Of a stretch of DNA of 64,000 nt, positions 8,620 through 13,161 are shown one piece after another. Both the position numbers and the translations under genes were made by a program. This DNA is from Escherichia coli (GTDB lineage: Bacteria > Pseudomonadota > Gammaproteobacteria > Enterobacterales > Enterobacteriaceae), in NCBI RefSeq assembly GCF_003334815.1, contig NZ_QOWO01000008.1; one strand, given 5' to 3'. The notes beneath the pieces were generated by a model that saw nothing but the letters and a program-made list of their open reading frames with translations, ran no database searches and had not been told where the DNA came from. Each line of letters starts with the position of its first letter. The stretch's first letter is position 1.

Positions 8620-9609
8620 TTACTTACCGCCTAAACCTTTTTTCTCCAGTTCTTCTTTAAAGTTGTCACGCGTGATCAGTACCACGTCGGTAACTTCGGT
8701 AAATTTTGGCGGTTCAACGTCTTTTGCTACCCAGTTGTAAAGCATTTCGCTGGATTTATAGCCATGTACGTCCGGGCTTGGCAGCAGGGAACCGTAGAAG
8801 CCGGTTGCCTGTGCTTTAGACAGTTCGCTCACCGCATCCACACCGTTAATGCCAATGCCGATGATATCGGCCGCTTTAAAGCCCTGACCTTCCGTCGCGC
8901 GTACGCCGCCCAGCACGGTGCTGTCGTTCATACCGACGATCAGCCAATGTTTAACTTCCGGATGTTGAACCAGCATTGAGTTGGCAGCGTCAAATGCCCC
9001 CGGGATGTCGTTAGATTTGGTAGGTACCTGATAAATTTGTTTTTCCGGGAATCCGGCCGCTTTCAGCGCATCCATAGATCCCGTAGTACGGCGGCGGGCG
9101 GTATCCAGTTCGTTGGCGGTAATCGCCATCACCGCGCTTTCTTTGACATCCCAGCCACGTTTCTGCATCTCTTTATACAGTTCCTGGCCCTGACGTTCGC
9201 CAATTTTAGTCGCCGCCATCATCACCAGCGGAACGGTATCCATTGGCTTACCTTTGGCGTTAACAAACTGGTCATCCACGGCAATGACTTTCATATCGTA
9301 GCCACGCGCTTTCGCGACGATGGCAGAGCCGAGTTTGGGGTCCGGAGTACAAATAACGAAACCTTTTGCGCCACTGGCAGCCAGGCTGTCGATCGCGTTC
9401 AATGTTTTTTCGCCATCCGGCACGGCAATCTTAATAACCTCAAACCCTAAATCCTTCCCGGCTTTATCGGCAAACTTCCATTCGGTCTGGAACCACGGCT
9501 CTTCCGGTTGCTTCACCAGAAAACCGAGCTTCAGGTTCTCCGCCATAGCGGATTGTGACATAACGGCTGCCAGACCAATGGCTGCCAGGGCTTTAGTAAA
9601 TTTGTGCAT
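8620..9609 (-). CDS. araF: Periplasmic L-arabinose-binding protein
   Basis: Track ORF 346 aa; recalled AraF (329 aa) begins MHKFTKALAAIGLAAVMSQSAMA (signal peptide) at ATG 9609. Confidence 0.95.
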   Translation of the reverse strand: MHKFTKALAAIGLAAVMSQSAMAENLKLGFLVKQPEEPWFQTEWKFADKAGKDLGFEVIKIAVPDGEKTLNAIDSLAASGAKGFVICTPDPKLGSAIVAKARGYDMKVIAVDDQFVNAKGKPMDTVPLVMMAATKIGERQGQELYKEMQKRGWDVKESAVMAITANELDTARRRTTGSMDALKAAGFPEKQIYQVPTKSNDIPGAFDAANSMLVQHPEVKHWLIVGMNDSTVLGGVRATEGQGFKAADIIGIGINGVDAVSELSKAQATGFYGSLLPSPDVHGYKSSEMLYNWVAKDVEPPKFTEVTDVVLITRDNFKEELEKKGLGGK

Positions 9610-9860
9610 GGTTCTCTCCAGCTTTAGTGTCGTTTTGTGTAGGGCAAAAACGAATGACATTCGTTAAATTAATCGGAAAACAAAGCATTACCTTTTAACT
9701 AAAAGATAAGTGACTGTGTTGACATAGTTTTAGCGAGAAATTAATTCTCCATAGGAGAGCAATATCACATCGCAGAATTACAGTGAGAACGTGCATAAAT
9801 TTAGCGGGAAAAGACATAAGGGAAAGCCAATTTGTCAGACAAATTGTCGAATGCACAGCA

Positions 9861-9880
9861 GATTAATCCATAAGATTAGC
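9861..9880 (+). promoter_or_regulatory. Candidate AraC binding half-site upstream of araFGH
   Basis: ATTAATCCATAAGATTAGCC closely resembles the araBAD araI1 element (TATCCATAAGATTAGC); about 250 bp upstream of araF in inverted orientation. Confidence 0.5.
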
Positions 9881-10405
9881 CTGGAAATCCTTGTTGTCTT
9901 TGGTACCCATGCGGGATGTCTTCTTTTTAACCAGTCAATAGGCCGCATTACCTGGCGTTGAGTTTTTGAAATGGTGTAATAACCGCAACTCAAAGATGTG
10001 GAAAATGCACGTCATTCATTTCGTCATTAATTATCACTGTGCTCATTAATTAACAGAACACGTATAATGAGAGCCATCTCGCAAAAATGAAAAAACGTTT
10101 TATAAAATCATCACTTCATCATGAATTCAAATTCATTGATTAATATCAACAAGATACAAAAAGCACTATCATTAAAATTCATTGCAGTTACATTGATTTC
10201 ATCAATGAAATGTAAAAATATATAAACTTGATGATTTAAGCATTTTCTTATACCCGTTCAGACGTTATTCTTATTTCAGATCATCGTCAGAATTGACTCC
10301 ACGATCACATTTCGGACCGGCAGAAAGGAATTATTCTGCAAACAGTAATTATGGTGTTTTGATTTATCTTGCACCTCTCCACTTCTGGATATAAGGATAT
10401 TAGGT

Positions 10406-10909
10406 ATGGCAACCGCTGGAATGCTTCTCAAACTCAACTCTCAAATGAACCGCGAGTTTTACGCATCCAATCTCTACCTTCACCTGAGTAACTGGTGTTC
10501 TGAACAGAGTCTGAACGGCACCGCCACTTTCCTTCGCGCCCAGGCACAGAGTAATGTGACCCAAATGATGCGCATGTTTAACTTTATGAAGAGTGTCGGC
10601 GCTACCCCCATCGTTAAAGCCATTGATGTTCCCGGTGAAAAACTGAACTCTCTGGAAGAACTGTTCCAAAAAACGATGGAAGAATACGAGCAACGTTCTA
10701 GTACGTTGGCACAGTTAGCCGATGAAGCGAAAGAACTGAATGATGATTCAACCGTCAATTTCCTGCGCGATCTGGAAAAAGAACAGCAGCATGATGGTCT
10801 GTTGCTGCAAACCATTCTTGATGAAGTGCGCAGTGCGAAACTTGCGGGTATGTGCCCTGTGCAGACCGACCAACATGTTCTGAATGTCGTGTCACACCAG
10901 CTGCATTGA
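10406..10909 (+). CDS. ftnB: Ferritin-like protein FtnB
   Basis: 167-aa ORF matching recalled FtnB (YecI). Confidence 0.94.
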
Positions 10910-10954
10910 TCATCATCGGCGCTAATGCATTGCGCCGATGAAGGTTTTGAGAAA

Positions 10955-10989
10955 CCGCTGCCTCATCTGTTTGAAGCAGCGGTTTTTTT
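10955..10989 (+). terminator. Intrinsic terminator after ftnB
   Basis: Hairpin CCGCTGCCTCATCTGTTTGAAGCAGCGG followed by T7. Confidence 0.7.
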
Positions 10990-11239
10990 AATGGGATTCA
11001 CCCTGTGGGGTAAACTTGAGTTCAATAAGCGCGATGGCTTTTTGGATTGCCCGCATGGTGACCGGGTCTGCGGCGGCGGGATGGTTAGTAAAGTCGATAT
11101 TCTTCAGCTGACTGGACATTTTTTCACGAACTTCAACGGGCGCGATTACATCGAGAACATCCAGAATTTGTTTGATAACCAACTGGCAAGCAACCACATC
11201 AGAAACCAATTCCTGATCGGCATTCAGCGGCTGGGACAT
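10988..11239 (-). CDS. yecJ: DUF2766 family protein YecJ
   Basis: 83-aa ORF matching recalled YecJ. Confidence 0.88.
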
Positions 11240-11324
11240 CGTAAACTCCTGATAGCATTTTGAAAGCCGTTATAGTAGCGACTTCACATCTTCAGCGATA
11301 GTCACATCCACCGTCATCAGGACA

Positions 11325-11352
11325 CAAAAAAACCTGCCGGAGCAGGTTTTTT
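11325..11352 (-). terminator. Bidirectional intrinsic terminator (azuC side)
   Basis: A8-CCTGC-CGGA-GCAGG-T6: GC stem flanked by A and T runs, functional in both orientations; abuts the azuC stop. Confidence 0.7.
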
Positions 11353-11353
11353 G

Positions 11354-11440
11354 TTATCGGAACATATTGCCTGGCGGTACGTCTTTGAACGTCTTGCAAT
11401 AGTTATTGAACATACTTTTCAGGATTTTGCGCAGTTTCAT
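11354..11440 (-). CDS. azuC: 28-aa small protein AzuC, encoded on the dual-function AzuCR (IsrB) RNA
   Basis: Hand-translated minus-strand ORF MKLRKILKSMFNNYCKTFKDVPPGNMFR-stop, matching recalled AzuC; below the 60-aa ORF track cutoff. Confidence 0.85.
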   Translation of the reverse strand: MKLRKILKSMFNNYCKTFKDVPPGNMFR

Positions 11441-11702
11441 CGCGGCACTCCGACCATTTGTTATACAGGTGTTATTGTCTTTGCGCTTATAATATGACAA
11501 CCATCACAAAAATCAATCTTTATGTGATACAAATCACATAAATACCCCTTTAATGTTATAAAAATGATAATCAAAAAACAGCCCCCCTATTTCTGACACC
11601 TACAGATGGCAAGAAATAGCGCCTGCCAGGCGTCTTTTCCGGCCATTGTCGCAGCACTGTAACGCGTAAAATAGTGCTTTCTCTTACTCTTCTGGCTGGA
11701 CC

Positions 11703-12026
11703 ATGAGACTTCTGATTCTGACTCTTTCATTAATAACGCTGGCGGGGTGTACGGTTACTCGCCAAGCCCATGTGAGCGAAGTTGACGCGGCAACAGGTAT
11801 TGTACGGTTAGTTTATGACCAGGCTTTTTTGCAGCATGCCCATACCGATCGTTATGTCAGTCGCGGGATCGCCGATCGCGCATGCCAGCAGGAAGGCTAT
11901 ACCCACGCGGTCCCCTTTGGTCAGCCAGTAGGCAACTGTAGCCTTTTTGCGGGTTCCTTATGTTTGAATACGGAATTCACTTTGTCATATCAGTGCCATC
12001 ATTCCGCCTTCCCTGTCTTTCTCTAA
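11703..12026 (+). CDS. yecR: Lipoprotein YecR
   Basis: 107-aa ORF with lipobox LAGC; matches recalled YecR. Confidence 0.9.
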   Translation: MRLLILTLSLITLAGCTVTRQAHVSEVDAATGIVRLVYDQAFLQHAHTDRYVSRGIADRACQQEGYTHAVPFGQPVGNCSLFAGSLCLNTEFTLSYQCHHSAFPVFL

Positions 12027-12196
12027 ATATTTTAATCAGCGAGGGGATCTTCGCTGATTAAAGAAATAGCGGTAATGCGTTTTATTCCCATTCGTATTTT
12101 TAATAATTGAAGTTTATATTTTACCTTTTGCAAATAATAAAATAACAAATTATAGTGACGCCACAGCAACAAATATAACCTTTGTGGAGCACTATC

Positions 12197-12694
12197 ATGC
12201 TGAAACCAGAAATGATTGAAAAACTTAATGAGCAGATGAACCTGGAACTGTACTCTTCACTGCTTTATCAGCAAATGAGCGCCTGGTGCAGCTATCATAC
12301 CTTCGAAGGTGCTGCCGCGTTCCTGCGCCGTCACGCCCAGGAAGAGATGACGCATATGCAGCGTCTGTTTGATTACCTGACTGATACCGGCAATTTACCG
12401 CGTATTAATACCGTTGAATCTCCGTTTGCTGAATATTCCTCACTTGATGAGTTATTCCAGGAAACCTATAAACACGAACAATTAATCACCCAGAAAATTA
12501 ACGAACTGGCTCATGCTGCAATGACCAATCAGGACTACCCAACATTTAATTTCCTGCAATGGTATGTTTCTGAGCAGCATGAAGAAGAGAAACTGTTCAA
12601 ATCGATTATTGATAAATTAAGCCTGGCAGGCAAAAGCGGCGAAGGTCTGTATTTTATCGACAAAGAACTCTCTACCCTCGACACACAAAACTAA
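12197..12694 (+). CDS. ftnA: Ferritin FtnA
   Basis: Track ORF starts at 12182 (MWSTIM...); recalled FtnA (165 aa) begins [19 protein letters not shown] at ATG 12197. Confidence 0.95.
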
Positions 12695-12701
12695 TGCTCT
12701 C

Positions 12702-12730
12702 CGGCGGCAGGTTTACTGCCGCCGTTTCAA
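12702..12730 (+). terminator. Intrinsic terminator between convergent ftnA and yecH
   Basis: Hairpin CGGCGGCAG-GTTTA-CTGCCGCCG followed by TTTCAAAT. Confidence 0.6.
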
Positions 12731-12731
12731 A

Positions 12732-12971
12732 TCAGTGACGGCAAATCTTACTCTGATCGGTCGAAAAACCGTCTTTCGAAGGTATAAATTTGCCTTTTGC
12801 TGCCAGAAACGCTACCAGCTCTCCCGCTGTCATCCCTTCTGCCGAGCAGGTGTGAAAACGTGCCTGTTCACCAAAACGCGCTTTAATCGCAGCTTCCAGA
12901 CTGGCATGCGTATATTGCTCGCCTGATTCAATCATCATATTTAACACTTCATGACCGTGAATAGAGTCCAT
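12732..12971 (-). CDS. yecH: DUF2492 family protein YecH
   Basis: 79-aa ORF matching recalled YecH. Confidence 0.88.
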   Translation of the reverse strand: MDSIHGHEVLNMMIESGEQYTHASLEAAIKARFGEQARFHTCSAEGMTAGELVAFLAAKGKFIPSKDGFSTDQSKICRH

Positions 12972-13161
12972 CGTCCCTCCTCAAAAAAAGCCTAGCGTAG
13001 CGATTGCCGCTTATGAAGACTTTGCGCCAGCGCAGGACTGAATGCTTTTTATTGTACATTTATATTTACACCATATGTAACGTCGGTTTGACGAAGCAGC
13101 CGTTATGCCTTAACCTGCGCCGCAGATATCACTCATAAAGATCGTCAGGACAGAAGAAAGC

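Follow-up and report, generated by a model that had tools for sequence, protein, structure and literature searches.

The inverted repeat that follows ftnB in the stretch of Escherichia coli DNA analysed here (64,000 nt of contig NZ_QOWO01000008.1, referred to as the window) probably encodes an RNA hairpin that, used from both strands, determines where mRNAs end between ftnB and its convergent neighbour yecJ. On the minus strand, published data place the 3' end of steady-state yecJ mRNA 3-7 nt beyond the hairpin base, in antisense overlap with the ftnB stop codon. The best-supported role of the element thus lies on the strand opposite to the one chosen in the first-pass annotation, which had tied the repeat to the 3' end of ftnB. 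The element is a conserved, single-copy mRNA 3'-end stem-loop of a well-known kind; no new mechanism is implied, and the practical consequences are small.

Architecture of the ftnB-yecJ gap

Between positions 10000 and 12000 the window is identical to E. coli K-12 MG1655, with MG1655 coordinates equal to window coordinates plus 1976519. The convergent genes are separated by 78 bp, and this gap contains two inverted repeats (Table 1).

Table 1. Features of the ftnB-yecJ region in window coordinates.
Feature	Position	Strand	Remarks
ftnB coding sequence	10406-10909	plus	stop TGA 10907-10909
Palindrome (hairpin element)	10913-10941	either strand as RNA	perfect 10-bp stem, 9-nt loop (10923-10931)
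Second hairpin and T7 run	10949-10989	either	14-bp imperfect stem, arms 10952-10965 and 10972-10985; T7 10983-10989
yecJ coding sequence	10988-11239	minus	convergent with ftnB; stop codon 10988-10990
yecJ mRNA 3' terminus	10901-10913; peaks 10906, 10907, 10910	minus	published Term-seq and TRS maps
ftnB mRNA 3' terminus	10944-10952; peak 10945	plus	TRS 2023, weak support
Antisense-ftnB stretch with mild C>G	10653-10886	minus	includes Rho position at window 10719

The first repeat consists of two arms, TCATCGGCGC (10913-10922) and GCGCCGATGA (10932-10941), which an inverted-repeat search found to be complementary over 10 bp at 100%, and of a 9-nt loop, TAATGCATT, that differs from its own reverse complement. 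Inside the loop lies an 8-bp palindrome, AATGCATT (10924-10931), whose axis is offset by one base from that of the arms and which is therefore simply loop sequence; if the loop is read in register with the arms, one of its four pairs is symmetric. A spacer of 3 nt (TCA) separates the ftnB stop codon from the stem, or 4 nt if the 9-bp version of the stem is counted. The first-pass annotation had described a near-perfect 27-bp palindrome at 10911-10940, with 9-bp perfect arms around a self-complementary core, beginning 2 nt after the ftnB stop. The inverted repeat is indeed present, but several details had to be revised: the arms are 10 bp long, the annotation's own 27-mer is located at 10914-10940, the spacer is that given above, and the object is a stem with a loop, the supposed core being shifted by one base relative to the arms and variable among strains and species.

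The 27-mer pattern, with up to three mismatches, occurs once in the 64-kb window, whereas shuffles predict 0.04 occurrences, and the window contains 13 perfect hairpins (arms of 10 bp or more, loops of 3-15 nt) against 0.87 in Markov shuffles. The repeat is non-random, yet hairpins of its class, mostly terminators, are common in the window.

The second inverted repeat lies 10 nt downstream of the palindrome on the plus strand, where, judged from its sequence, the hairpin with its T7 run looks like a canonical ftnB terminator. In transcripts of the opposite strand, this hairpin is the first of the yecJ 3' UTR, with only UUUCUCAAAA, a UUUCUC tail, after its stem. The real terminator had been placed at 10955-10989 in the first-pass annotation; a hairpin and a T-run do occur there, at 10952-10985 and 10983-10989, but among the RNA 3' ends listed for this region in Adams 2021 and TRS 2023 none falls at the T7 run (MG1655 19875xx). 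The T7-run hairpin, which one would readily annotate as the terminator of both genes, is thus not the place to which the listed RNA ends map.

When a region of 101 nt around the palindrome is folded as RNA, two separate hairpins form on both strands, with agreement between the minimum-free-energy and centroid structures and with folding z-scores of -5.66 and -5.85 for the two strands. The palindrome stem alone reaches -18.9 kcal/mol on the plus strand and -18.3 kcal/mol on the minus strand. The first-pass annotation had named absorption into the terminator structure as the outcome that would speak against a separate element; in these predictions, the palindrome folds apart from the downstream hairpin on either strand. 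A search of Rfam 15 over positions 9500-13000 (E <= 1) gave no match overlapping 10900-10990. A consensus scan for promoters and terminators over 10300-11500 called no terminator and missed the T7-run hairpin as well, so that it is uninformative on terminators; its sole promoter-like match lies at 11249-11276.

RNA 3' ends mapped on the two strands

Three published data sets place minus-strand ends at window positions 10906-10910. For growth in LB to OD 0.4, the Term-seq table of Adams 2021 (PMC7815308) has an entry at MG1655 1987429 (window 10910), three nt past the hairpin, where the RNA ends in ...GCGCCGAUGAUGA (also given as ...CAUCGGCGCAAUGCAUUAGCGCCGAUGAUGA). This entry is labelled 'antisense ftnB', carries 22,904 reads, low among the minus-strand values of the table, and is recorded in one of three growth conditions. 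In TRS 2023 (PMC10687069), an entry of Supplementary Data 3 gives a minus-strand terminus at 1987420-1987432 with its peak at 1987425 (753 reads, p 1e-78 to 1e-96), labels it 'Primary yecJ' and folds it with the identical 10-bp stem at -21.4 kcal/mol, while Supplementary Data 2 of the same study, from a separate RNAtag-seq set, has a minus-strand peak at 1987426 (p ~1e-17 per library in three libraries). The yecJ entry in Supplementary Data 4 sets the 3' UTR at 83 nt, and in the 3'-UTR table of that study this UTR bears no flag as a separate transcript (PMC10687069). The first-pass suggestion of an RNA stem-loop that stabilises a 3' end is thus borne out as far as a stem-loop at a stable 3' end is concerned, but the well-supported end is that of the convergent yecJ, which had not been foreseen, and the ftnB end is weak. 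In addition, a published Term-seq sheet other than that for LB OD 0.4 includes an internal yecJ 3' end at window 11188 (minus strand; MG1655 1987707), 51 nt into the coding sequence.

On the plus strand, an entry of TRS 2023 Supplementary Data 2 (PMC10687069) gives a terminus at 1987463-1987471, with its peak at 1987464 and the label 'Primary ftnB'; the entry gives a value of 0.58 and, for its three libraries, p 5.8e-5 / 0.23 / 1.7e-7. To judge from the order of the sheets, this end apparently comes from the Term-seq data of Dar and Sorek. The peak falls within a short U-run (10945-10948) that is separated from the hairpin by AAGG.

The 3' ends on which this account relies are present already in published genome-wide tables, and the locus itself is without published discussion. 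Neither ftnB nor yecJ appears in the TERMITe and RepRanger supplements, and a search of the ftnB literature found only control by CsrA through the 5' UTR, and nothing on the 3' UTR. Published Term-seq 3' ends also lie in the ftnB 5' UTR, at window positions 10337 and 10380 (plus strand; MG1655 1986856 and 1986899), which puts them 69 and 26 nt ahead of the start codon; transcription that stops prematurely, or processing, in the CsrA-bound leader may account for them.

Conservation of the stem and divergence of the tails

In a blastn search (word size 11, E <= 10) of 5426 complete E. coli genomes, the site is single-copy (median 1) in 5415. The idea of a REP or other dispersed repeat was rejected on the grounds of one copy per genome and of no further copy in the window with up to three mismatches, and inspection of 10913-10941 found the REP consensus (of the GCCGGATG...CATCCGGC type, with its flanking tetranucleotide) to be absent. 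The first-pass statement that the element is not a REP sequence is upheld by these counts, and the proposed search for the motif elsewhere in the genome returned this single place. The element is genus-specific and vertically inherited.

Within E. coli, many strains carry an extra A (TCATACATCGG...), which cuts the stem to 9 bp; the loop variants include TAATGCGTT, CAATGCATT and TAATGCAATT, and in STLEFF_29 the right arm carries a T-to-A substitution. In the O157:H7 lineage, whose exact variant occurs in 308 of the 5426 genomes, the stem has two uncompensated G-to-A changes. On the plus strand these yield C-A and A-C mismatches, on the minus strand tandem G-U pairs, and the stem is weakened to -7.7 kcal/mol (plus) and -8.8 kcal/mol (minus). 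Since this lineage carries a weakened stem, a strong stem is not indispensable.

Beyond E. coli, representative loci were fetched by way of FtnB, and a CGGCGC...GCGCCG hairpin lies a few nt past the ftnB stop in all six of the other Escherichia loci (MOD1-EC7003, E69, E. whittamii, SCPM-O-B-8794, E. albertii and E1V33). A spacing of 9 or 10 nt separates CGGCGC from GCGCCG, and the loops of these loci differ in sequence and in length (6-10 nt); loops seen at the site, E. coli included, are TAATGCATT, TAATGCGTT, CAATGCATT, TAATACATT, TCATGTATT and ATAAAAAGAT. The stem starts 3 nt past the ftnB stop in K-12 and 5-6 nt past it in other variants and species. One pair outside the core has changed from U-A to C-G in two Escherichia lineages, a compensatory substitution. 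Pairing that is conserved around a loop that is free to vary fits an RNA structure and speaks against a protein operator.

Pair counts lie above shuffled and slid controls for the two strands alike, paired cells amounting to 75.3% (plus) and 78.0% (minus). The six core pairs are nearly invariant, and the covariation consists of few independent events that cannot assign the selected strand. G-U pairs are kept on the minus strand alone for the two O157 G-to-A changes and for the C9 change, and U-G on the plus strand alone in E69. An assignment of the strand from wobble pairs, three events for the minus strand against one for the plus strand, was tried and set aside as indecisive, the difference between the O157 stem energies of the two strands also being small.

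At the equivalent place in Salmonella and Citrobacter, the FtnB-fetched loci contain no homologue of the hairpin and have a REP-like element or other hairpins instead. In Salmonella and several Citrobacter, a REP-like GCCGGAT...ATCCGGC follows ftnB, which suggests, from sequence comparison, that different hairpins may fill one 3'-end role across genera. Conservation in E. coli and Salmonella had been proposed as a check in the first-pass annotation; the structure is kept across the genus Escherichia, but it has no homologue in Salmonella. The REP-like GCCGGATA...TATCCGGC was seen between ftnB and yecJ, at about positions 2005-2110 of the fetched loci, in Salmonella enterica subsp. diarizonae and arizonae (L015, L018) and in Citrobacter (L022, L025-L027).

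The tails of the hairpin vary more than its stem. On the plus strand, the tail is AAGGUUUUG in K-12 (4 U in 8 nt), AAGUUUUUG in most E. coli (5 U) and AUUUUUUG in MOD1-EC7003 (6 U). On the minus strand, the tail that follows the palindrome in K-12 is UGAUCAAU, with 3 U in 8 nt, and neither this tail nor that of the second hairpin (UUUCUCAAAA) appears to resemble that of an efficient intrinsic terminator. The minus-strand tail of E. whittamii, SCPM-O-B-8794 and E1V33 is UUUUAUUA, terminator-like for yecJ, so that the U-rich tail lies on the yecJ side in these three and on the ftnB side (AAGUUUUU) in the E. coli lineage.

Two E. coli genomes carry rearrangements at the locus. In TUM2820 (L053, NZ_CP135688.1 1892119-1892266), where ftnB is annotated as a partial pseudogene, a deletion running between the GCGCCG of the palindrome and the GCAGCGG of the second hairpin (window equivalent 10938-10982) fuses the palindrome GCGCCG to the T7 run, and the result, CGGCGC TAATGCATT GCGCCG TTTTTTT, is a textbook intrinsic terminator. 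In Z1323CEC0019 (L007, NZ_CP148401.1), an IS3-family element, IS1203, is inserted at the extreme 3' end of ftnB (window ~10900), just upstream of ...CAGCATTGATCAT, and leaves the palindrome and yecJ intact.

Proposed routes to the two ends and competing explanations

On the minus strand, yecJ transcription would pass the sequence of the second hairpin (10985 to 10952) and then the palindrome, and would enter antisense ftnB, where Rho would halt it about 200 nt beyond the palindrome; 3'-to-5' exonucleases would trim the RNA back to the palindrome hairpin, which has no U-tail and would cap the mRNA. Termination by Rho followed by trimming is, in our analysis, the most likely route to the yecJ end, and it would parallel the behaviour described by Dar and Sorek 2018 (PMC6061677), in which Rho-dependent E. 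coli transcripts end precisely just past stable stem-loops without U-tails and evidence is given that such stem-loops protect against PNPase and RNase II. Supplementary file 2 of Adams 2021 (PMC7815308) includes a bicyclomycin-sensitive (Rho) position at MG1655 1987238 (minus strand; score 3.88, p 1.7e-6). This position is 191 nt downstream of the palindrome 3' end on that strand and is a regional measure, unspecific for this end; direct non-canonical termination at the palindrome hairpin may be an alternative route. The minus strand from window position 10886 to 10653 has 24-29% C against 18-23% G, a mild enrichment. On the plus strand, the palindrome hairpin probably acts on the poorly expressed ftnB mRNA either as an intrinsic terminator, weak and the first of two, or as a place where trimming halts, and the second hairpin with the T7 run would act as a back-up terminator. 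The plus-strand hairpin with a tail resembling that of a weak terminator matches the weak mapped ftnB end.

Comparison with known systems shows partial agreement with several of them. Rho-dependent transcripts have protective stem-loops (Dar and Sorek 2018, PMC6061677), and the element resembles these in its stable, GC-rich stem, which lacks a U-tail on the minus strand, and in the precise 3' end of the steady-state RNA shortly beyond that stem; the bicyclomycin-sensitive region and the mild C>G further downstream may be another point of likeness. It differs from them in that a terminator-like hairpin, which is read through, precedes it as the first of the yecJ 3' UTR, and in that the yecJ end lies over the stop codon of a convergent gene. 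Somewhat like intrinsic terminators, including tandem or bidirectional ones between convergent genes, it has a plus-strand GC-rich stem with U4-U6 within 3 nt and a mapped ftnB 3' end inside a U-run, weakly and in one data set. Unlike them, it has a 9-nt loop and, in K-12, a U-run that is short and interrupted, it was missed by the terminator scan, and in K-12 the strong 3' end belongs to the minus strand, whose tail is not rich in U. With REP and BIME elements at mRNA 3' ends it has in common that it is an extragenic palindrome without a U-tail, located in a convergent gap and placed to block exonucleases, whereas it is single-copy, genus-specific and vertically inherited and lacks the REP consensus.

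Among the competing explanations, a brake on ftnB translation termination is unlikely, although it is compatible with a role in 3'-end formation: a terminating ribosome would have to melt the stem and could stall there, which would lower FtnB output. The plus-strand hairpin has the stability given above, and in K-12 it begins 3 nt after the TGA, slightly further away in other variants and species. REP hairpins less than 16 nt from a stop codon are described as stalling terminating ribosomes (Liang, Rudd and Deutscher 2015, as cited in PMC12306157), and the ftnB element is likewise a stable hairpin within that distance. However, the effect is described for REPs, to which this element does not belong, the short spacing may merely reflect the compactness of the 78-bp gap, and the only well-supported in vivo signal is on the opposite strand. 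That the hairpin is a mere part of the ftnB intrinsic terminator, or a chance palindrome without a role, is very unlikely; its position 10 nt upstream of the canonical-looking terminator and the textbook terminator created by the TUM2820 deletion can be cited in favour, but the two hairpins are held apart in the minimum-free-energy and centroid folds of both strands, the hairpin is kept across Escherichia species despite diverging flanks, 0.04 matches are expected by chance, and the RNA 3' ends listed in the published tables adjoin the palindrome, with none at the T7 run.

A role in small-RNA biology or in DNA binding finds even less room. The Hfq-binding module of small RNAs has a layout of hairpin, U-rich linker and U-tailed terminator, which is similar to that of the ftnB 3' region. 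On the plus strand, the hairpin, AAGGUUUUGAGAAA and the terminator with its U7 follow one another in this order, and the ftnB 3' UTR could on this account yield a small regulatory RNA; this is highly improbable, however, since Rfam gave no match at E <= 1, the linker is A-rich, not U-rich, in other Escherichia species, and the literature search on ftnB, UTRs and Hfq led only to CsrA at the 5' UTR. Moreover, no 3' end is found at the U7 run among the entries listed, and the TRS 2023 3'-UTR table entry for yecJ (PMC10687069) is likewise without a separate-transcript flag. The first-pass annotation had also offered a dimeric protein-binding site on DNA, and a DNA operator for a dimeric regulator is scarcely tenable. 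In its favour can be cited the perfect 10-bp arms and, inside the loop, AATGCATT, which may loosely resemble an NsrR half-site. Against this stand the off-axis position of that core and its variability within E. coli and between species, the compensatory arm change from T-A to C-G, which keeps the pairing and not the sequence, the half-site spacing of 9 or 10 nt, the location between two convergent 3' ends, with the sole promoter-like match of the scanned region well away from it, and the lack of further genome copies.

A further proposal, possible though doubtful, builds on the preferred reading of an RNA hairpin used from both strands. One hairpin would be terminal to both convergent mRNAs, which would share complementary 3' ends of at least ~36 nt, and the polarity of the terminator would have switched within Escherichia evolution, so that in E. 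coli, with the U-rich tail on the ftnB side, yecJ would rely on termination by Rho and subsequent trimming. With a stem that starts only 3 nt beyond the stop codon of ftnB, translation termination of that gene and yecJ 3'-end formation could also interact. More generally, a palindrome just past the stop codon of one gene may belong to the transcript of its convergent neighbour. The 83-nt yecJ 3' UTR overlaps the ftnB stop in antisense, and engineering or deleting the 3' end of ftnB therefore alters the yecJ mRNA too.

Further features were observed in the neighbouring azuC region. Two sub-threshold Rfam matches, to STnc370 (33.4 bits, gathering threshold 54) and rsmX (23.4 bits, gathering threshold 56), lie at window positions 11294-11358 (plus) and 11327-11407 (minus), over the AAAAAACCTGC-CGGA-GCAGGTTTTTT hairpin of the azuC/AzuR terminator, and probably reflect mere resemblance to a terminator; mapped minus-strand 3' ends are located at 11323-11325, at this terminator. 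Upstream of the azuC/AzuR unit (minus strand), a perfect 10-bp inverted repeat at 11519-11542, TTTATGTGAT ACAA ATCACATAAA, contains TGTGA-N6-TCACA, presumably a CRP-type site.
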